Part shown: positions 23,570 through 61,704 of the stretch, in pieces
How positions within the stretch are numbered: the first letter of the stretch is position 1
Layout of the letters: each line of letters begins with the position of its first letter
Assembly (NCBI GenBank): GCA_963814375.1
Contig: CAWFCQ010000004.1
Coordinates: 192,001-256,000, forward strand
Origin: an uncultured Chloroflexia bacterium
GTDB lineage: Bacteria > Chloroflexota > Limnocylindria > QHBO01
DNA: 64,000 nt
Direction: 5' to 3'
Position numbers and translations under genes: made by a program
Notes under the pieces: generated by a model
What the model was told of the DNA's origin: nothing
Databases searched by the model: none
Seen by the model: only the letters and a program-made list of their open reading frames with translations

Positions 23570-25123
23570 ATGCGGCGACTGACCCGGGTCGCGGCGGCGG
23601 TCGCGGCAGCCGTGATCGCACTCTCCCCGAGTATCTCCGGAGGCCCGACCGAGGCCGCAGGCCCACCCCTGCGCTACCTCGCCGGCCCGCCTGGAAGGCT
23701 CGACCCGGCTTACATCGCCGATGCGGCCGACGTCCAGCTGCTCCTTCAGCTTTACGCGGGCCTGACTCGTCTCGACGAGTCAGGTGAGCCCTACCCGTCG
23801 CTTGCCTCGGGATGGGAGATCAGCGACGACGGGCTGACCTACGATTTCGCGATCCGCGAGGGCCTGACCTTCAGCGACGGCACGCCGCTGGTGGCGGAGG
23901 ACGTTCGCCGCTCGTGGCTGCGGCTCCTCGATCCGGAGGCCGGCGCCACCGCGCCCGACGTGCTCAACGTGGTCGAGGGCGCATCCGAGCGGCTCGCCGG
24001 AGAGGTGGACGAGGAAGACGTCGGCATCGAGGCGCCCGACGACGCGACGCTCATCGTCCGTCTGCGCCACCCGGCCTCCTACTTCCTCGACATTGTCGCC
24101 ACGCCGGCGACGTTCGTCGTGCCACCCGGTGCGGACACGACGGACGGCTGGCAGACCGCCGACGCCTTCGTCGGTAGCGGCCCGTACGTGCTCGACGGAA
24201 CCGAGGGCACCGATCTTGTCCTGCGCGCCAACGACCGATACGTGGCGGGGCCGCCGTCGATCGACGAGATCCGCTGGATGAGCGTCATCGATGGCGACAC
24301 GGCGACCGCCTTCGAGGCCGGCCAGGTCGACCTCGCCCAGGTGCCCGGATGGGACGCCACCTGGATCGCCTACGACGCGTCACTCGGACCGCGGCTCAAC
24401 GCGGCAGAGCCGCTCACCGTGACGTACTTCGGCTTTGACACCACGCAGCCTCCGTTCGATGACGCACGGGTCCGGCGTGCCTTCGCGCTCGCGCTCGACC
24501 GGGAGCGGCTCGTCCCGCTGGCAGAGGGGGCGTCGTCCACCGCGGCTTCCAGCCTCGTGCCGCCGGCGATCTGGCCGGAGGGGTTCGAGCCCGAGATCGC
24601 CCACGATGCCGAGGAGGCCGCTCGGCTGCTCGACGAGGCGGGCTACGAAGATCGCTCCGATCTCGGGCCGATCGTCGTCAACGGCTCCGGCCTCGGGGTC
24701 GAGCCGGCGGTCGCCGTCTGGCGCGAGGTGCTCGGCGTCGAGGTCGAGATCGAGACGATGGAGTTCGGCGACTTCCTCACCGTTCTCGACACGCAGCCGC
24801 CGCAGCTCTTCACGATCAGCTGGATCGCCGACTACCCGTCGCCGCATTCGATCTACAGCCTCCTCCTCGAGCCCGGCGCAGTCAGCAACTACGGCGATTG
24901 GCGCGACGAGGAGTTCGCCGCCCTGCTCGAGGATGCGGCGCGCGCTCCCGAGGAGGAGGTCGGCGAGGCCTACGACGCCGTCGATGCATTTGTCGCCCAG
25001 GAGGCGCCCGTCATCCCGTGGGCCTACGGCGAGACATGGTGGCTGGTGGCGGACGGCCTGCGGGGGGTCGGCAACCTCACGATCGGGCTCCTGGACTTCG
25101 GCGGTGTCTCATGGGACGGCTGA
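23570..25123 (+). CDS. Peptide ABC transporter substrate-binding protein (family 5, OppA-like)
   Basis: LYAGLTRLD, TFSDGTPL, GSGPY, PFDDARVRRAFALALDR, WIADYP. Confidence 0.9.
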   Translation: MRRLTRVAAAVAAAVIALSPSISGGPTEAAGPPLRYLAGPPGRLDPAYIADAADVQLLLQLYAGLTRLDESGEPYPSLASGWEISDDGLTYDFAIREGLTFSDGTPLVAEDVRRSWLRLLDPEAGATAPDVLNVVEGASERLAGEVDEEDVGIEAPDDATLIVRLRHPASYFLDIVATPATFVVPPGADTTDGWQTADAFVGSGPYVLDGTEGTDLVLRANDRYVAGPPSIDEIRWMSVIDGDTATAFEAGQVDLAQVPGWDATWIAYDASLGPRLNAAEPLTVTYFGFDTTQPPFDDARVRRAFALALDRERLVPLAEGASSTAASSLVPPAIWPEGFEPEIAHDAEEAARLLDEAGYEDRSDLGPIVVNGSGLGVEPAVAVWREVLGVEVEIETMEFGDFLTVLDTQPPQLFTISWIADYPSPHSIYSLLLEPGAVSNYGDWRDEEFAALLEDAARAPEEEVGEAYDAVDAFVAQEAPVIPWAYGETWWLVADGLRGVGNLTIGLLDFGGVSWDG

Positions 25124-54837: not shown

Positions 54838-55500
54838 ATGCCATCTGTGCCGCGCCCCGCAGCGATCGTGTTCGACCTCGACGGGACCCTGGTGGACACG
54901 GTCGATGCGCGCATCGCCGGCTGGGAGGAGGTCTTCGCGCAGGACGGCATCCCGGTGACCCGCGAGCAGCTGAAGCCGATGATCGGCATGGATGGCCGCC
55001 GGCTGGCGATCGCTGCCGCGGCGTCGGTGGGGGTTCAGGTCGACGAGGACGACGCGGCCGAGATCGACCGCCGGGCGGGCGCGCTGTTCGACCGCCACAA
55101 CCGCGACCCACGGCCGCTCAGCGGCGCTCGCTCCGCGCTGGCGCGCCTCGACGCCGCCGGCGTGACGTGGGCGATCGCCACCTCCTCGCGCGCGGAGCAG
55201 GTGACGGCGTCGCTTGCGGCGCTGGACCTCGCGACGTCGCCTCGCATCGTCGACGGCAGCTCGGTGGCGAACGCGAAGCCCGAGCCGGACCTGCTGCTCA
55301 AGGCAGCCGAGGAGCTCGGGGTGGCACCTGCCGGCTGCTGGTACGTGGGCGACTCGACGTGGGACATGCTGGCGGCGGTCGCCGCAGGGATGCATCCGGT
55401 TGCCGTGCTCGCCGGCGCCGCCGTTGACCGCGAGGCGCTGGAGGAAGCCGGGGCTGCCGTCGTCCTCGACACCCTCGACCAGCTCGAGATCGGGCGCTGA
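54838..55500 (+). CDS. HAD-family hydrolase
   Basis: FDLDGTLVDT, KPEPD, VGDSTWD. Confidence 0.92.
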   Translation: MPSVPRPAAIVFDLDGTLVDTVDARIAGWEEVFAQDGIPVTREQLKPMIGMDGRRLAIAAAASVGVQVDEDDAAEIDRRAGALFDRHNRDPRPLSGARSALARLDAAGVTWAIATSSRAEQVTASLAALDLATSPRIVDGSSVANAKPEPDLLLKAAEELGVAPAGCWYVGDSTWDMLAAVAAGMHPVAVLAGAAVDREALEEAGAAVVLDTLDQLEIGR

Positions 55501-55504
55501 TCCG

Positions 55505-58093
55505 ATGCCGCTGGAGGAGTATCGGCGCAAGCGCGACTTCGAGGTCACGCCGGAGCCGGCGCCCGGCGATGTCGTGGCGCGCAGCGGGCGCTTCACCGTC
55601 CAGCGCCACCGCGCCACCGCGCTGCACTACGACTTCCGCCTCGAGATCGATGGCGTGCTCGTCAGCTGGGCCGTTCCGAAGGGACCGACCCTCGACTCAC
55701 GCGCCCGGCGCCTGGCGATGCGGACCGAGGATCACCCAATCGAGTACCTCCCATTCGAGGGCGTGATCCCGGCCAAGGAGTACGGCGGCGGTGACGTCAT
55801 CGTCTGGGACTGGGGCATCTTCGAGCCCGAGGACGAGACCCCTGACCCGGCCAAGGGTCTGCGCCGGGGCGAGATAAAGTTCATCCTCCACGGCGAGCGG
55901 CTCCACGGCCGCTACACGATCATCCGCACCGACTCCGACGACGGCCGCGAGCGCTGGCTGCTGCTGAAGAAGAAGGACGAGGCCGCGATCGAGGGCTGGG
56001 ATGCCGAGGACCACCCGGCCAGCGCCAAGACGGGCCGCACGAACGACGAGGTGCGCGATGGTGTCGCGCCGCGCTTCACCGCCGATCCGCCGCGAGCGCC
56101 CGGCGAGATCGATCTTGCCGCCGCGCGGGAGGCGCCGATGCCGGACTTCATCCCGCCGATGCGGGCGACCCTCGCCACCGATCCGTTCGACGATCCCGAC
56201 TGGGTGTTCGAGGTGAAGTGGGATGGATACCGGGTCGAGGCCGTGGTGCGCGACGGCGCGGCGAAGCTCTGGACGCGCAATCGCCAGGATGCCGCACGCT
56301 ACTTCCCCGAGCTGGCGGGGGAGACATCCTGGATCGCCGCCAAGCAGGCGATCGTGGACGGCGAGGTGGTTGCCCTCGACGAGCAGGGCCGCCCGCGATT
56401 CAGCCTGCTCCAGGACCGGACCGGCATCCATACCGGCCGAGTGCCGGGGACAAACCGACGGGGACCGCCGGCGCCGGTCGTGTACCAGGCCTTCGACCTG
56501 CTCCACCTCGACGGCCGCTCGCTGCTCGGGGTCCCGCTCGAGGAGCGGAAGCGCCTCCTCCGCAGTGTCCTTCGTCCGCACCCACGAGTGAAGTACGCCG
56601 GCCACATCGAGGCGAATGGGACCGATGTATTCCGCGCCGCCCGCGATCAGGAGCTCGAGGGCATCGTGGCCAAGCTCAAGCGCTCCCCATATGAGCCAGA
56701 CCGGCGGAGCCGGTCGTGGCTCAAGCTCAAGGCCAGGCGTGAGCAGGAGGTCGTCGTCGTCGGCTGGCTGCCGGGCCAGGGGACGCACACCGACATCGGC
56801 TCGCTCATCGTCGCCGTGCGCTCCGGCGAGCGGTGGGCGCACGCCGGCCAGGTCGGCAGCGGGATCAACACGAGGACCCGGCGCGAGCTCCATCGGCAGC
56901 TGGAGGAGATGGAACGGCCCGACCCGCCGCTCGATCCCGCGCCGCGGCTCAAGGGAGCGCGCTGGGTCGAGCCGCGGCTCGTCGCGCGCGTCGAGTTCGC
57001 GGATTGGACGGCGGAGAATCTCCTGCGCCAGGCCGCCTTCAAGGGGATCGAGGCCGGCCGTGACCCGCGCACCGTCCGGCGCGAGCGTGCGGTGGCCACC
57101 TCGCGAGCCACTGCGGAGGCAGAACGGACCCATACTGAACGGCCGATGCGAGCAGCCGATGACGCCGTCGCCGCGCTCGATGCCCTGGAGCGCGAGGGCA
57201 CGTGGAACGTGGATGGTCGGGAGATCCGCGTCACGAACCTCGACAAGGTGCTGTTCACGCCGGTCGAAGGCGGAACGCCGGTGACGAAGCGCGACCTGCT
57301 CCGCTATCACGTGCAGGTGGCACCCACGCTCGTGCCGTACCTGGCCGGCCACGGGCTGACGGTCCAGCGCTACCCCAACGGGATCGAGTCGAAGGGGTTC
57401 TGGCAGAAGGACCTGCCGAAGCACGCCCCCGACTGGATCGAGCGCTGGACGTACCACCACCGGGAGGAGGGGCCGAAGGACTACGTCGTCGTCGACTCGG
57501 CCGCGACCCTGGCGTGGCTGGCGCAGGAGGCGGCGATCGAGCTCCATCCCTGGACCAGCACGACCGATGCACCCGACCGGCCCAGCTACGCCCTGATCGA
57601 CATCGATCCCGGGCCGGAGACGGCCTGGGAGGAGGTCGTCACGCTGGCGCGCCTGTATCGGACCGCGCTCGGCCATCTCGGGGTCGCCGGCCATCCCAAG
57701 GTCACCGGCAAGCGCGGCATCCAGGTCTGGATCGGCATCGAGCGCGGGCCCACCTTCCATGAGACGAGCGCGTGGGTGGAGGGCCTCTCACGAGCGGTCG
57801 GCAGCACGGTCCCGGACCTCGTCAGCTGGGAGTGGGCGAAGCGCGCGCGCAAGGGCAAGGCCCGGCTCGACTACACCCAGAACGCGATCAACAAGACCCT
57901 CGTCGCGCCGTACAGCACCCGTCCGGCTCCCGGCGCCCCGGTCAGCATGCCGTTCGCGTGGGACGAGCTCGACGACCCCGCCCTCCGCCCGGATCGCTGG
58001 ACGATCGCCGATGCCATCGAGCGGATTCGGGAGGCCGGTGACCCGTTCGCGCCGGTCCTCACTGATCGCCAGCCGTTGCCACCGCTCGGCTGA
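55505..58093 (+). CDS. ligD: NHEJ DNA ligase D (phosphoesterase-ligase-polymerase)
   Basis: HYDFRLE..SWAVPKGP; EVKWDGYR; TNLDKVLF, DIDP, RLDYTQN. Confidence 0.95.
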   Translation: MPLEEYRRKRDFEVTPEPAPGDVVARSGRFTVQRHRATALHYDFRLEIDGVLVSWAVPKGPTLDSRARRLAMRTEDHPIEYLPFEGVIPAKEYGGGDVIVWDWGIFEPEDETPDPAKGLRRGEIKFILHGERLHGRYTIIRTDSDDGRERWLLLKKKDEAAIEGWDAEDHPASAKTGRTNDEVRDGVAPRFTADPPRAPGEIDLAAAREAPMPDFIPPMRATLATDPFDDPDWVFEVKWDGYRVEAVVRDGAAKLWTRNRQDAARYFPELAGETSWIAAKQAIVDGEVVALDEQGRPRFSLLQDRTGIHTGRVPGTNRRGPPAPVVYQAFDLLHLDGRSLLGVPLEERKRLLRSVLRPHPRVKYAGHIEANGTDVFRAARDQELEGIVAKLKRSPYEPDRRSRSWLKLKARREQEVVVVGWLPGQGTHTDIGSLIVAVRSGERWAHAGQVGSGINTRTRRELHRQLEEMERPDPPLDPAPRLKGARWVEPRLVARVEFADWTAENLLRQAAFKGIEAGRDPRTVRRERAVATSRATAEAERTHTERPMRAADDAVAALDALEREGTWNVDGREIRVTNLDKVLFTPVEGGTPVTKRDLLRYHVQVAPTLVPYLAGHGLTVQRYPNGIESKGFWQKDLPKHAPDWIERWTYHHREEGPKDYVVVDSAATLAWLAQEAAIELHPWTSTTDAPDRPSYALIDIDPGPETAWEEVVTLARLYRTALGHLGVAGHPKVTGKRGIQVWIGIERGPTFHETSAWVEGLSRAVGSTVPDLVSWEWAKRARKGKARLDYTQNAINKTLVAPYSTRPAPGAPVSMPFAWDELDDPALRPDRWTIADAIERIREAGDPFAPVLTDRQPLPPLG

Positions 58094-58118: not shown

Positions 58119-58703
58119 ATGATTGAGCAGCTCCTGAGCGTGACCCCCGAAGCACGCGAGAAGATCGACAGCGTCCGCACCTTCAACGACTTCCCCGAGG
58201 CGGTGCTGCGCGTTCGCGTTCTTGCCCGCGAGGGACCGAGATTCCGCTACGAGATCGCCCTCGAGGATCCGCGCGAGCGAACCGAGGACGACCTCGCTGT
58301 CGAGCTGGACGGGCTCGGCCTCGTGGTCGATCCCAGCAGCGCCGCGGATCTCGCCGGCGCCACGATCGACCTGGATCCGGCCGTCACCGGCGGCGGGCTC
58401 CGCATCGACAATCCCAACGAGGGTTGGCAGGACCCGCTCGCGAAGGCGGTGCAGGAGGTCCTCGACCGCCAGATCAACCCCGGCGTCGGATCACACGGCG
58501 GGATGGTCTCGCTCGTGGAGGTGAAGGAAGGCACCGCCTACCTGCGCTTCGGCGGCGGCTGCCAGGGGTGCGCGGCGGTGGACGTCACCCTCAAGCAGGG
58601 CGTCGAGACCGCCATCAGGGCGGCGGTCCCGGCCATCTCGGCGATCGTGGACGCCACCGACCACGACGCGGGCGCCAACCCGTACTACAAGCACGCGCAC
58701 TGA
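58119..58703 (+). CDS. nfuA: NfuA-like Fe-S biogenesis protein
   Basis: Degenerate A-type N-domain; INPGVGSHGG..GGGCQGC..TDH..NPYY. Confidence 0.88.
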   Translation: MIEQLLSVTPEAREKIDSVRTFNDFPEAVLRVRVLAREGPRFRYEIALEDPRERTEDDLAVELDGLGLVVDPSSAADLAGATIDLDPAVTGGGLRIDNPNEGWQDPLAKAVQEVLDRQINPGVGSHGGMVSLVEVKEGTAYLRFGGGCQGCAAVDVTLKQGVETAIRAAVPAISAIVDATDHDAGANPYYKHAH

Positions 58704-58726: not shown

Positions 58727-58755
58727 AAAAACGGGGCCCTTCGGGGCCCCGTTTC
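58727..58755. terminator. Bidirectional intrinsic terminator
   Basis: AAAA-ACGGGGCCC-TTCG-GGGCCCCGT-TT between convergent nfuA and the peptide gene. Confidence 0.88.
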
Positions 58756-58762
58756 GCTTTGC

Positions 58763-58888
58763 CTAGCGGCGAAGCGGGAAGTCGCCCCCGCCCGTTGCCG
58801 CCAACACGGTCGAGGCGAGGGTGAGGATGCTCAGGGCCGCCGCCGAGCCGGCAACCACGAGCGATCGAAGGATTCGACGTGTGCGCAT
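58763..58888 (-). CDS. 41-aa secreted propeptide (putative signalling peptide)
   Basis: AAGGAG RBS; MRTRR-ILRSLVVAGSAAALSILTLAS-TVLA|ATGGGDFPLRR; terminator directly downstream. Confidence 0.8.
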   Translation of the reverse strand: MRTRRILRSLVVAGSAAALSILTLASTVLAATGGGDFPLRR

Positions 58889-59014
58889 CGGTCCTGTGCT
58901 CCTTAGATGGTGCGGCCGAAGGCTTGGTCGGGGAGTGGCCGCGCTCGTGCGCAACCCTCCCCCCGATGGGACCAACCGGCAATGACCCGGGAGTCCCGCC
59001 ACCGATGCAGTGGG

Positions 59015-59069
59015 GTGGTACTTTCGGTCTGGGCCCTTGTCAAGTCATGCTTGCCAAGACGTGTAGACT
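59015..59069. promoter_or_regulatory. Divergent promoters with tandem CTTGnCAAG palindromes
   Basis: CTTGTCAAG at 59036-59044 and CTTGCCAAG at 59050-59058; minus TTGACA-N17-TACCAC; plus TAGACT 6 nt before ATG 59076. Confidence 0.7.
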
Positions 59070-59075
59070 GCCGCC

Positions 59076-60374
59076 ATGCCCAGAACCAGGACCGGCGCCC
59101 GCGCCCCCGAAAAGGACCGCGAGCTTGCGCGGCGGATCGGCCTCCGTATCCGCGAAGCCCGTCATCGCGCCGGCATGACCCAGCAGCAGCTCGCCGGCGA
59201 GCGCTACACAAAGGCATACGTGAGCGCCCTCGAGACGGGGATCGCCCGGCCCTCGATGGTCGCTCTCAGCTTCCTCTGCGAGCGCCTCGGCCTGCCGGCC
59301 AGCCACTTTATCGACGAGGCCAATCCGGTGTGGACGCGGCTCGAGGTCGACATGCGCCTCGCCGCCGGCGACTGGCAGACGGCAGCCGACGGCTACGAGA
59401 GCCTTCTCGCCGACGCGTCCGACGACTCGATGCGCGCCGACCTGCTCCGCGGCCTGGCCGAGGCATCGGCGCGTCTCGACCGCGGCACCGAGGCGATCGC
59501 GGCCGCTTCGGAGGCGACGCGCATCTACGCAGCCGCCGGGCGTGAGGCCGATGCCGCGCTGGCGCGCTACTGGATGGCATACGGCCTCTATCAGTCCGAC
59601 AACGAGCTCGATGCCCGCAGCGTCCTGACGGCGCTGCTCGAGCAGGTGCGTGGCGGGCTCCACGTCGAGCCGGACTTCGAGATGCGGCTTCTCACCTCGC
59701 TGGCGGCGGTCGAGTCGCGAGCCGGGCAGCCGTCGCGGGCGCTCACATACCTGGAGGAGGCGCGAGGGCTGGCCGCCGACCTCGACGACCGGCGGCGGGC
59801 CGCATTCCTCTTCAACCTGGCCATCAACTACCGCGAGGTCGGCGACTTCGAGGCGGCCATCCGGGCCGGCACGCAGGGCATGGCGCTCTATCGAGCTGCG
59901 GGCGCGATCTTCGAGTCAGCTCGGATCGAGAACGACCTGGCCCTGGCCTACCTCGCCACCGGGCAGATCGAGCGCGCGCGCGAGCTGGCCTCCGACGCGC
60001 GCCACCAGATTGAAGAAACCGGCGACGAGCGTTGGATGGCCGCAGTGGTCGACACCGAGGCACAGGTCGCCCTTGCCAGCGGGGACGTGGACGAGGCGCT
60101 GCGCCTGGCCAGCGTGGCGCGCGGCCACGCGGCCCGCAGCGGCAACGAGTTCAACGGGCTGATGGCGATGCTGACCGAGGCTCGCGCCCTGCGTGTCGGT
60201 GGCCGCAACGCCGAGGCCGAGGAGCGCTTCGCGGAGGCCGCCACGATCGCCCGAGCCAGCCGAGCACCAAGCCGGCTCCGCGAGGTCCTGCGGGAGTGGG
60301 CCGACCTTCGCGCCGAGTCAGGTGATCACCGCGGCGCCTACGAGCTCTCGAGCGAGGCGCTCGCGGTCAATTGA
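59076..60374 (+). CDS. XRE-HTH plus TPR transcriptional regulator (RRNPP/NprR-PlcR-like)
   Basis: RIREARHRAGMTQQQLAG..TKAYVSALETG..PS; TPR-like helices FLFNLAINY, RIENDLALAY. Confidence 0.88.
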   Translation: MPRTRTGARAPEKDRELARRIGLRIREARHRAGMTQQQLAGERYTKAYVSALETGIARPSMVALSFLCERLGLPASHFIDEANPVWTRLEVDMRLAAGDWQTAADGYESLLADASDDSMRADLLRGLAEASARLDRGTEAIAAASEATRIYAAAGREADAALARYWMAYGLYQSDNELDARSVLTALLEQVRGGLHVEPDFEMRLLTSLAAVESRAGQPSRALTYLEEARGLAADLDDRRRAAFLFNLAINYREVGDFEAAIRAGTQGMALYRAAGAIFESARIENDLALAYLATGQIERARELASDARHQIEETGDERWMAAVVDTEAQVALASGDVDEALRLASVARGHAARSGNEFNGLMAMLTEARALRVGGRNAEAEERFAEAATIARASRAPSRLREVLREWADLRAESGDHRGAYELSSEALAVN

Positions 60375-60503: not shown

Positions 60504-61061
60504 TCAGGGGCTCGCCGAGCCACTCGGCACCGGTTCGACCAGCGTGAACGTCCCCCCGGCGATCGGCGCGGCGTTGGGGTCAAGGTGGATCCGCATCTCG
60601 TAGGTCCCGGCGCCCCACGCGTCGAGTAGCGCCGCCGCTGCGACCGTGAAGCCGATCACGGTCCGATCGTCGGGGACGGTCTGCGCCTCGACCGGCGCCT
60701 GGACCTGCTCGCTGGGCGATGGATCGATGCGCTGCACCTCGACGAAGATCGCGGCCGCCGCCGGCGATCCCGCCACGGCATAGGCGAAGGTGTCGCCACG
60801 GGCGAAGCGATCGGTTTCCGAGCCGTCTGCGATGGCGCCGCTGGGGGCGAGGGCTGCGCCGAACTCGATCGGCAGCAGCTCTGCGCCGGTGCCAGCGGCG
60901 GACGGGCTCGCGCCGGGTGCGGCCGTGTCACCCTCGCCACCCAGCAGCCGCACGATCCCCGCCACGCCGAGGATGAGGACCACGGCGACCAGCCAGCCGC
61001 CGATCCGCATGGCCCGCGGCGACAGCGAGATCCGACGTCCGGGACCGGGCCGTCGCGCCAT
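60504..61061 (-). CDS. Single-TM hypothetical protein
   Basis: Basic N-terminus, TM, beta-rich domain. Confidence 0.7.
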   Translation of the reverse strand: MARRPGPGRRISLSPRAMRIGGWLVAVVLILGVAGIVRLLGGEGDTAAPGASPSAAGTGAELLPIEFGAALAPSGAIADGSETDRFARGDTFAYAVAGSPAAAAIFVEVQRIDPSPSEQVQAPVEAQTVPDDRTVIGFTVAAAALLDAWGAGTYEMRIHLDPNAAPIAGGTFTLVEPVPSGSASP

Positions 61062-61176
61062 CGACCGGTTTCGGAGGGGCCGCAGACGCTGTCGGATCGC
61101 CGAGGCCTGACCGCGACTGCCGGTGCTCATCTGCACCGTCCACTGTATCGGGGCGGTGCACGGTACGATGGGCCTC

Positions 61177-61704
61177 ATGACACGGCGGCTGTTCATCTTC
61201 GACGAACCCGATCGATTCGTGGCCGGCACGGTCGGTCAGCCCGGCGATCGGGCCTTCTACCTCCAGGCTCGGAAGGGCGGCGCGCTGGTCAGCGTCGGCA
61301 TCGAGAAGGTGCAGGTCGCCGTGCTCGCCCAGCGACTGGATGACCTGCTCGACGCCGTCGATGCGCCCGCAGGCGCCGAACCCGGCGAGGAGCACGGGCT
61401 CGAGGAGCCTGTCGTCGAGCTGTTCCGTGTCGGAGCCATGGCGCTTGCATGGGACGCGGGCACCGGCGCCGTGGTGATCGAGGCTCAGACGCCGACCGAG
61501 GACGGGGAGTACGCCGAGCTGCCTGATGACGCCGATGATGGACCCGACCTGCTCAGGGTCCGGATCGACGCAACCAACGCTCGCGGCTTCGTGCGCCGAG
61601 CTGAGGCTCTCGTGGGCGCCGGGCGCCCGGCCTGCCCGTTCTGCGGCCAGCCGCTCGACGCGCAGGGCCACTTCTGCGCGCGCGGCGACGGCCAGCTCAA
61701 CTGA
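61177..61704 (+). CDS. DUF3090 family protein
   Basis: FVAGTVGQPGDRAFYLQA..EKVQV..GRPACPFCGQPLD..GHFC. Confidence 0.9.
   Translation: MTRRLFIFDEPDRFVAGTVGQPGDRAFYLQARKGGALVSVGIEKVQVAVLAQRLDDLLDAVDAPAGAEPGEEHGLEEPVVELFRVGAMALAWDAGTGAVVIEAQTPTEDGEYAELPDDADDGPDLLRVRIDATNARGFVRRAEALVGAGRPACPFCGQPLDAQGHFCARGDGQLN

Follow-up and report, generated by a model that had tools for sequence, protein, structure and literature searches.

Whether signalling by re-imported linear peptides and cytoplasmic tetratricopeptide-repeat (TPR) receptors is confined to the Firmicutes is a question raised by a pair of divergent genes from an uncultured soil bacterium of the Chloroflexota. The pair lies at positions 58,727 to 60,374 of a 64,000-nucleotide stretch of contig CAWFCQ010000004.1, referred to here as the window, and consists of a gene for a 432-amino acid regulator with helix-turn-helix (HTH) and TPR domains and a 41-codon micro-open reading frame (micro-ORF) that is a candidate propeptide gene. 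A previous sequence-only reading of the window had proposed that the two form a cell-cell signalling module of the RRNPP type in a genome that was guessed to belong to the Chloroflexota. The guess was correct, the source assembly being a metagenome-assembled genome (MAG) of Candidatus Limnocylindria (2.52 Mb, 8 contigs, 89% complete), and the proposal of a signalling module finds support at the level of comparative genomics and fold. On balance, the pair probably represents an RRNPP-type system from outside the Bacillota, with one gene for the signalling peptide and the other for its cytoplasmic receptor. Sequence comparison and modelling support what is new here, a putative family of RRNPP-type cassettes in the Chloroflexota with a peptide code of its own and a leaderless side branch.

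The RRNPP_detector program defines such systems as a 250-500-amino acid TPR receptor encoded beside a 10-100-amino acid Sec-exported propeptide and, according to the accessible sections of the paper, was run only on Firmicutes and viruses (PMC10075063). RRNPPA receptors were described in 2025 as being "of gram-positive Bacillota" in a study that, in its accessible sections, left open whether their ancestor had nine or five TPRs and called for an outgroup (PMC12700828). The accessible part of a 2026 review keeps the same Gram-positive/Firmicutes frame (PMC13220807). In these papers, signalling of this type belongs to the Bacillota and to the plasmids and phages that they carry. Literature searches combining RRNPP with Actinobacteria, Streptomyces, Chloroflexi/Chloroflexota or an origin outside Firmicutes returned no such system; supplementary lists of receptors and peptides could hold non-Firmicutes cases. 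The Limnocylindria are abundant, uncultured Chloroflexota of soil and freshwater, and the Chloroflexota are single-membrane bacteria, an envelope that would ease peptide traffic.

The Micro-ORF and Its Predicted Peptide

The receptor gene occupies positions 59076..60374 of the forward strand, and the micro-ORF is arranged divergently from it at 58763..58888 of the reverse strand (coding region 58888..58766, stop codon 58765-58763). The micro-ORF comprises 41 codons and a stop, is nested inside a longer 79-amino acid GTG frame and encodes the candidate propeptide MRTRRILRSLVVAGSAAALSILTLASTVLAATGGGDFPLRR, for which no family match was found in Pfam or NCBIfam. An AAGGAG ribosome-binding site (58899..58904, reverse strand) stands 10 nt ahead of the ATG, and both the divergent ORF and its Shine-Dalgarno sequence were thus present as the sequence-only reading had described them.

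Residues 1-30 (58799..58888, reverse strand) read by rule as a Sec-type signal that begins MRTRR, continues with a hydrophobic core and ends in V-L-A. Four Arg residues fall within residues 2-8, hydropathy reaches a maximum of 1.95 over 19 residues, and V-x-A occupies positions -3/-1. The signal-peptide call rests on these rules together with conservation, V28 being retained in 41 of 42 relatives and A30 in all 42. These features agree with the previous proposal that cleavage would leave the 11-residue tail ATGGGDFPLRR (58766..58798, reverse strand). As judged from the alignment, codon table and list of tails, the core of this tail is conserved as [ST]GG[GA]D[FW]P, and the Pro is followed by 0-5 residues of differing sequence (LRR, RLR, VRR, RFR or R, or nothing at all). 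The residue that follows the cut site is also variable (Ala, Val, Ser, Cys or Gly).

Two other export classes were considered and rejected. The segment T-R-R-I-L-R resembles a twin-arginine motif, yet position 4 is Arg in only 15 of 42 relatives (Lys in 15, Ser in 6 and others in 6), which does not favour Tat export. A lipoprotein was dismissed as a general feature in that Cys follows the cut site in a few clades only.

Conservation and Coding Evidence in Orthologous Loci

The receptor was present in 24 of 24 genomes of the same genus. In a species-level genome collection, the 80 nearest loci came from MAGs labelled Candidatus Limnocylindria, Chloroflexota or "uncultured Chloroflexia," with a few bins labelled otherwise. 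Six loci (L048, L054, L059, L064, L095 and L096) are from MAGs titled Steroidobacteraceae, Binatia or Angelobacter; these are 68-86% identical and fall inside the Limnocylindria tree, and are probably mislabelled bins or mis-binned contigs. A relative was encoded in 533 of 537 pattern stretches, and across the phylum 186 of 401 genomes gave a match (184 of 399 without the unpublished genomes G180 and G303).

The orthologous set comprised 85 distinct receptor sequences, 81 of which had at least 250 nt of upstream DNA. A divergent micro-ORF was found in all 81 (80 of 80 without the unpublished genome G006, which also contributes one row of the receptor tree and belongs to an 18-locus set). The full signal part with the conserved V-x-A was kept in 67 of the 81, a GGAG-like site preceded nearly all orthologous micro-ORFs, those of only 12 codons included, and the start-to-start distance between micro-ORF and receptor gene ranged from 164 to 193 nt. 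When applied to random 1.1-kb windows of the same genome, the micro-ORF filter fired in 178 of 5000. Given this chance rate, the presence of the micro-ORF at 81 of 81 loci is more than chance.

The pattern of substitution also bears on coding. Residues A30, G33, G34 and P38 were invariant in 42 ORFs of the GGGDFP clade, each being encoded by four synonymous codons. The ratio of nonsynonymous to synonymous polymorphism (pN/pS), summed over all pairs, which are not independent, fell from 0.52 over codons 2-30 to 0.21 over codons 31-38, and GGGDFP by itself gave 0.09. Judged by these ratios, the tail rather than the signal is the most constrained part of the micro-ORF, and purifying selection is strongest there. 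Comparison of the loci shows the micro-ORF to behave as a sequence that is translated and on which purifying selection acts.

Co-variation of receptor and peptide was considered as a proof of co-evolution and was rejected because vertical descent gives the same pattern, relatedness being sufficient to explain it.

Pairing in Paralogues and More Distant Families

The pairing was also observed where receptor and micro-ORF are differently arranged. In-genus paralogues of the receptor (45-49% identity) had a convergent downstream micro-ORF of 35 codons in 8 of 8 loci, with tails such as ...ALAEGQPPFPR, ...ADSHPPIPR and ...ADGQPPIPR. Orthologues of a further family, f3 (47-53% identity), had divergent micro-ORFs ending in ...LAGGGGAPFPR, ...ALADGGGSPFPK, ...ALADNTPFPH and similar tails, and in family f2 (~30% identity) a co-directional upstream micro-ORF with two Cys residues, for example ...AAACDPGNGGLCS, was present in 5 of 5 loci. 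Among further paralogue loci of the class, a micro-ORF was found in 14 of 20, with a tail particular to each (...VLADNDKGGWP, ...ALANKPPPGWP and long D-P-G tails). In family f19, from the same phylum, micro-ORFs of 25-29 codons were found in 12 of 15 loci with upstream DNA, with a filter slightly looser than that used for the random windows (no Arg/Lys condition, 18 codons accepted). These were of two kinds, either divergent and ending in ...AVADSFPCGK or ...TAEILPPR, or co-directional and ending in ...ACAETVWPNP, and up to four f19 cassettes occurred per genome. An aromatic-Pro core recurred in nearly all tails.

Pfam analysis of the neighbours of eleven loci revealed no third gene common to the clades. 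These comparisons show that receptor and micro-ORF stay paired through rearrangement and paralogy, across the class as well as in a second family from this phylum. A test set in advance asked whether receptor homologues lack adjacent secreted micro-ORFs, and its outcome favoured the proposed module: micro-ORFs adjoin the receptor gene in the orthologous (81/81), in-genus paralogous (8/8) and f19 (12/15) loci. Paralogues and more distant relatives each have a short tail of their own, and the placement of the micro-ORF relative to the receptor gene is not the same in all groups.

Several features of individual loci were recorded. In a side clade of receptors (L035, L196, L197, L201 and L204), the tails are 19-35 residues long and all have D-P-G or D-P-W near the end. 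According to the 2025 study, D-P-G is a widespread motif among the AimP peptides of arbitrium and those of Paenibacillaceae (PMC12700828). The occurrence of D-P-G or D-P-W in the side-clade tails may be chance. At the f19 locus L209 (positions 419-601), a 60-codon ORF takes the place of the usual 25-29 codons and contains the tail word I-W-P-N twice, possibly as a result of tandem duplication of the propeptide. At two other f19 loci (L149, 2818-3816, and L166, 527-1531) a response-regulator/HD-GYP (HD_5) gene directly follows the receptor gene, with stop/start overlap at L149, a hint that, in f19, the peptide receptor and cyclic-di-GMP turnover may be connected. In f3, an extra gene for a 104-amino acid XRE-HTH protein (L021, 1731-2042; also in G036) lies between the micro-ORF and the receptor gene and is co-directional with the latter.

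A tblastn search of 72,556 plasmids gave no match at 1e-8, and viral contigs gave one match, to the HTH only. A profile search of 1.84 billion representatives yielded 420,448 matches at E ≤ 0.001 and 7,866 at 1e-30; these totals are swamped by giant generic TPR proteins and are no measure of family size.

A Clade with Leaderless 12-Codon Micro-ORFs

In one monophyletic clade of the receptor tree (15 rows; Shimodaira-Hasegawa-like approximate likelihood ratio test support of 99), the micro-ORF is only 12 codons long and encodes M-R-x-x-x-x-G-G-G-W-P-x. Examples include MRSASTGGGWPV, MRSAHTGGGWPS and MRTIHNGGGWPV. The ATG is in place in 14 of 14 loci and a stop occurs at codon 13 in 14 of 14, with synonymous codons in use for Arg2 (CGC/AGA) and Ser12 (AGC/TCC). 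The 12-codon form was also found in 8 of 8 further loci of the family, two of them encoding MQHVTNGSGFPA. Start and tail are kept in this form and the signal core is gone, and its position within an otherwise signal-bearing family suggests that it arose by loss of the signal part. One MAG carries two cassette copies on different contigs (L107 and L109), the 12-mers of which differ only at the last residue (Leu/Phe); the two may reflect a strain mixture or a recent duplication.

Leaderless communication peptides are, in the accessible part of the relevant paper, described as broadly distributed among Firmicutes, and the RopB-SIP system resembles the 12-codon clade in having an ultrashort ORF beside the receptor gene that encodes the mature peptide without signal or processing sites (PMC10518010). 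The two differ in length, 8 as against 12 residues, and the form described here would, according to the tree, have come about by loss of a signal.

Domain Build and Predicted Fold of the Receptor

As the sequence-only reading had claimed, the 432-amino acid protein combines an XRE-type HTH with a TPR region, here a superhelix of nine repeats. Pfam matches were obtained to HTH_31 (residues 21-75, 1.7e-8), HTH_3 (4.9e-6) and TPR_12 (1.9e-14, three stretches). The HTH DNA-binding domain (residues 21-76; 59136..59303, forward strand) was matched in single-sequence searches to the HTHs of PlcR (1.1e-3), Rgg (5jub, 0.019) and ComR (0.37). The TPR superhelix (residues 84-430; 59325..60365, forward strand), which has nine helix pairs in the model, is the presumed peptide-binding domain. 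The protein has no hydrophobic segment, its maximum 19-residue hydropathy being 1.19, and is therefore presumably cytoplasmic.

Held against the RRNPP definition, the protein has the TPR-type sensor of five or nine repeats expected of a cytoplasmic receptor (TPR_12 matches and nine helix pairs) and the N-terminal XRE-type HTH output domain of all members but Rap, and its gene is adjacent to one for a propeptide of 10-100 amino acids that is predicted to be exported, namely the 41-codon ORF with its rule-based Sec-like signal. Two TPR Asn residues had been pointed out by the sequence-only reading, of which N286 (ENDLA) is conserved, being Asn in 18 of 27 aligned receptors, but N247 (FNLA) is not (8 of 27). 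Besides N286, the conserved positions on the A helices of the repeats include R204, Y252 and W408. Assignment as an NsdA/AfsR-type actinomycete TPR regulator was rejected on the basis of scores below the curated NCBIfam cut-offs (NsdA_fam_reg, 28.6 bits versus 75; AfsR, 23.5 bits versus 1430).

An AlphaFold2 model built with 27 aligned relatives (predicted local distance difference test (pLDDT) 89.5, predicted template modelling score 0.71) contained the HTH followed by 18 helices spanning residues 84-430. Among solved peptide receptors, VIA-align ranked Rap phi105 with bound peptide highest (Z 27.3; root mean square deviation (rmsd) 3.5, 328 residues aligned), followed by RapI (24.8), NprR-NprX (24.6; 4gpk_A, 332 residues, ~11% identity in the structural alignment), Rap pLS20 (22.9), RapH (22.0), AimR (20.9 and 19.6) and PlcR (19.3; rmsd 10.2). 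A profile of the family, searched against sequences in the PDB, matched PlcR at 8.2e-12; the alignment is a single colinear block that pairs residues 18-246 of the query with residues 3-239 of PlcR and covers the HTH and first TPRs. NprR and RapH were matched at 1.8e-10 and 2.1e-10, respectively.

Co-folding of the receptor with the propeptide gave a score of 0.33 (individual runs 0.33, 0.32 and 0.36), the best of three controls scoring 0.13. The runs shared at least 36% of contacts, and the pLDDT of the partner was at least 35. The mark used for this procedure is reached by 58 of 80 solved complexes and by 2 of 110 mismatched pairs; scores of 0.60 or below were given by only 7 of those 80 complexes and by both of the mismatches that passed.

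Comparison with Known Receptor-Peptide Systems

The NprR-NprX system of the Bacillus cereus group resembles the pair in that the receptor, of ~420-430 amino acids, carries an HTH with nine TPRs behind it, and in having an adjacent small gene for a Sec-exported propeptide of which the C-terminal part is the signal, a feature predicted here from the genes. The two systems belong to different phyla and the GGGDFP core motif is unrelated. Furthermore, nprX is co-directional with and downstream of nprR, whereas the peptide gene is here divergent from and upstream of the receptor gene, and NprX needs further processing, whereas a signal-peptidase cut alone would here leave an 11-mer.

PlcR-PapR, also from the Bacillus cereus group, shares an XRE HTH and TPR regulator with an adjacent propeptide that is exported (here by prediction), and PlcR provides the best sequence link (1.1e-3 for the HTH in the single-sequence search and 8.2e-12, colinear, by profile). 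PlcR is unlike the present receptor in having five TPRs and 285 amino acids, and its VIA-align Z is only 19.3 with an rmsd of 10.2. The Rap-Phr systems of Bacillus, plasmids and phages offer the closest fold among peptide receptors (Rap phi105) and, as here, can be present in one genome as several paralogous cassettes with separate peptides. By contrast with the present receptor, Rap has no HTH; Rap proteins act on response regulators, and phr overlaps or follows rap co-directionally.

The 25-29-codon micro-ORFs of f19 are similar in size and layout to the short hydrophobic peptides of the streptococcal Rgg-SHP and ComR-XIP systems, beginning M-Y-R..., continuing with a hydrophobic run and ending with Asp/Glu and 5-8 residues, and are often divergent from the receptor gene. 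Rgg and ComR differ in having five TPR-like repeats and in matching the sequence of the HTH only, and the peptide of the window, unlike theirs, has a full Sec-type signal. AimR-AimP of the Bacillus phage arbitrium system is alike in its HTH and nine-TPR receptor (Z 20.9 and 19.6) and adjacent propeptide that is exported (again by prediction here), and the D-P-G motif of AimP, in the description available (PMC12700828), recurs in the tails of the side clade noted above. The cassette described here is, unlike AimR-AimP, chromosomal and without phage context, the single match in viral contigs being to the HTH only.

Intergenic Region, Hairpin and Neighbouring Genes

The divergent promoter region between micro-ORF and receptor gene is 187 nt long, and alignment of 76 intergenic regions revealed several conserved blocks within it. 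The first (58968..58997) is an inverted repeat, GGGACC...GTCCC, around CAATGACCC and is a candidate operator. The second, GTACTTTCGG (59018..59027), and the third, GTCAAGT.A.GCTTGCCAAG with the palindrome CTTGcCAAG (59039..59058), are candidate operator or promoter elements. The third block is unique in the genome. A regulon search with the conserved intergenic words gave no second target site, the words being either too short or unique in the genome. Conserved TGTAGACTGCC (59062..59072, forward strand) ends 3 nt before the receptor ATG and contains a -10-like hexamer, TAGACT, which ends 6 nt before the ATG. The receptor start has no ribosome-binding site (59062-59078) and, given the position of TAGACT, translation of the receptor may start on an mRNA that lacks a leader. 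A sigma-70 promoter scan found no promoter.

Beyond the end of the micro-ORF lies a G+C-rich hairpin (58729..58754) with a predicted folding energy of -31.3 kcal/mol (z -3.4), matched by 1 of 200 shuffles. The stop codon of a convergent NifU-like gene (Pfam NifU) is at 58701-58703, and the hairpin begins 26 nt beyond it, flanked by a run of A at one end and by a run of U at the opposite end. The hairpin therefore reads as a two-way terminator common to the micro-ORF and the NifU-like gene, and not as the dedicated terminator of the micro-ORF that the sequence-only reading had seen. It was not listed by a simple terminator scan.

Upstream, a long ORF (55214-58093) encodes a three-domain DNA ligase D-like protein; its TTG start gives an Arg/Ser-rich N terminus, and the ORF is probably over-extended, with the true start further in. 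Downstream of the receptor gene are genes for a 241-amino acid membrane protein without a Pfam family (60504-61229, reverse strand) and a DUF3090 protein (61123-61704, forward strand). Weak, chance-level tblastn matches to a similar membrane segment occur in orthologous loci, and no link to the cassette was seen. The genome has five loci for Opp/Dpp-type binding proteins (SBP_bac_5), one gene of which (3.0e-74) lies at 23786-24880 of the window, 34 kb from the cassette. These loci show that such importers exist in the organism and are permissive only.

A Model for the Pair and Its Alternatives

By analogy with PlcR-PapR and NprR-NprX, the following working model is suggested. The 41-residue product of the micro-ORF would be exported via Sec and cut after V-L-A, leaving ATGGGDFPLRR or a trimmed form around GGGDFP. 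The peptide would accumulate outside the cell and re-enter, most likely through an Opp/Dpp-type ABC importer, and would then bind the concave groove of the nine-TPR superhelix. Binding would alter the seat of the regulator on the conserved sites of the divergent promoter region, such that the regulator would control at least the pair itself, plus other targets, in a density-dependent manner.

A number of observations weigh against this model. The first concern the receptor. No RRNPPA-specific family was present among its Pfam and NCBIfam matches at E values up to 0.1. The model fits generic TPR proteins no worse than it does the peptide receptors (VIA-align Z 28.3 for APPBP2, 28.1 for LGN and 23.6 for MalT domain III), and Foldseek placed LGN/Pins at the top, PlcR at rank 28 (3u3w_A, E 3.2e-7) and Rap at ranks 46-47. 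The profile E values for PlcR, NprR and Rap are inflated by TPR likeness, designed consensus TPRs reaching 1e-65. The proposed check of the fold and profile against NprR and PlcR thus yielded the matches sought, but these are not unique, generic TPR proteins scoring equally or better. Build and fold of the modelled receptor are those of the nine-TPR RRNPPA type, and the fold and profile tests do not separate it from generic TPR superhelices. Similarly, the co-fold exceeded its controls, but a pass at 0.33 is weak by the calibration of the tool, being wrong more often than right unless the pair is likely beforehand; it nudges the odds of receptor-peptide binding up, no more.

The second group of contrary observations concerns the peptide. 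Its core is nearly invariant within the genus, unlike the pherotype diversity of many Firmicutes systems, and peptide type tracks receptor clade, as vertical descent alone would give. The leaderless clade is without an evident export route. A crude search for shared tail words detected no conserved micro-ORF in families f24, f25 and f29 (8 loci each), the word shared in f24 being the end of a normal upstream gene, and in a first set of 20 distant loci a convincing micro-ORF candidate was found in only 5. Finally, the locus was compared with four sequencing runs in contig form, of which three were metatranscriptomes and one was of DNA. Receptor fragments (59425-59587, 59518-59679, 59605-59755 and 59748-59970; 0-4 mismatches) occurred in RNA-library contigs from two studies, for which DNA carry-over cannot be excluded as the source. 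Bins 58792-59047 were uncovered in all four runs, that of DNA included, which makes the comparison uninformative on expression of the micro-ORF.

The alternative that survives best, although we regard it as unlikely, is that the HTH-TPR protein responds to another cue, be it a small molecule, a protein or stress, and does no more than regulate the gene of an exported peptide. The peptide would then act outside the cell or via another receptor, for example a membrane kinase, without feedback through the TPRs. Divergent regulator-target pairs are the commonest bacterial arrangement, and TPR domains bind many ligands; the model resembles MalT domain III and LGN no less than it does Rap and NprR. 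Kinases or response regulators also adjoin some relatives (a hybrid kinase at L021 and the response-regulator/HD-GYP genes at L149 and L166), and the in silico support for receptor-peptide binding is weak. However, across three arrangements and numerous paralogues, nothing but receptor and micro-ORF has stayed together, and the neighbours have no immunity, transporter or modification gene in common. That each paralogue within one genome has a distinct peptide fits cognate pairs, and fits a generic effector less well, and Gly/Pro-rich tails of 8-12 residues are unlikely effectors.

A more doubtful alternative is that the peptide, at least in its 12-codon form, stays inside the cell as a co-translated ligand or antagonist in an autoregulatory loop. 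A signal part with V-x-A, as kept in 67 of 81 micro-ORFs, would be pointless for a cytoplasmic ligand, and leaderless peptides of the RopB/SIP class are, according to the accessible text of PMC10518010, nevertheless secreted and re-imported in Firmicutes. In favour of a cytoplasmic role, all 14 loci of one clade and all 8 of the further loci encode 12-residue products without a signal, and no linked exporter was found among the neighbours.

It is highly improbable that the micro-ORF encodes the precursor of a modified peptide, either a lipopeptide or a ribosomally synthesized and post-translationally modified peptide (RiPP), with the tail as the enzyme-modified core and the TPR protein serving biosynthesis or its regulation. 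Such a role is hinted at by a weak NCBIfam match to a cyclophane-RiPP TPR protein (E 0.042; 11.9 bits versus a cut-off of 1125), by the tails of the ACSNGNGFP clade, which start with Cys after a lipobox-like V-A-A, and by the two Cys residues of f2 tails. Nevertheless, no modifying enzyme is conserved beside the pair in any clade, the protein carries an HTH, and lipidation cannot be general because the residue after the cut site varies. That the micro-ORF is a chance open frame in G+C-rich DNA, of a kind in which such genomes abound (71 ORFs listed in 7 kb here), has a negligible probability and is refuted, as far as sequence can show, by the retention of start, frame and stop at 81 of 81 loci, the synonymous variation at invariant residues, the pN/pS of the tail and the conserved ribosome-binding site.

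Significance

A broader proposition, about which we are slightly more doubtful than confident, is that the Firmicutes did not invent signalling by re-imported linear peptides and HTH-TPR receptors. The pair would then belong to a large, old and paralogue-rich cassette family that runs through the Chloroflexota, with its own Gly/Pro-rich aromatic-Pro peptide code, maturation by signal peptidase only and a leaderless form of independent evolutionary origin. Clusters of similar appearance in Dormiibacterota and Actinomycetota are leads only, and hint that the cassette family may reach further.

If the pair is indeed a signalling peptide and its receptor, the Limnocylindria would have their first proposed system of cell-to-cell signalling, and signalling by peptides and cytoplasmic TPR receptors would extend to a second phylum. 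The leaderless clade would represent a second, independent origin of leaderless communication peptides, and the combination of a 432-amino acid soluble protein and an 11-mer peptide would offer a directly testable pair. An HTH plus nine-TPR lineage outside the Bacillota would also provide the outgroup called for, with which to place the root of the RRNPPA tree and to tell whether the ancestor had nine TPRs or five.

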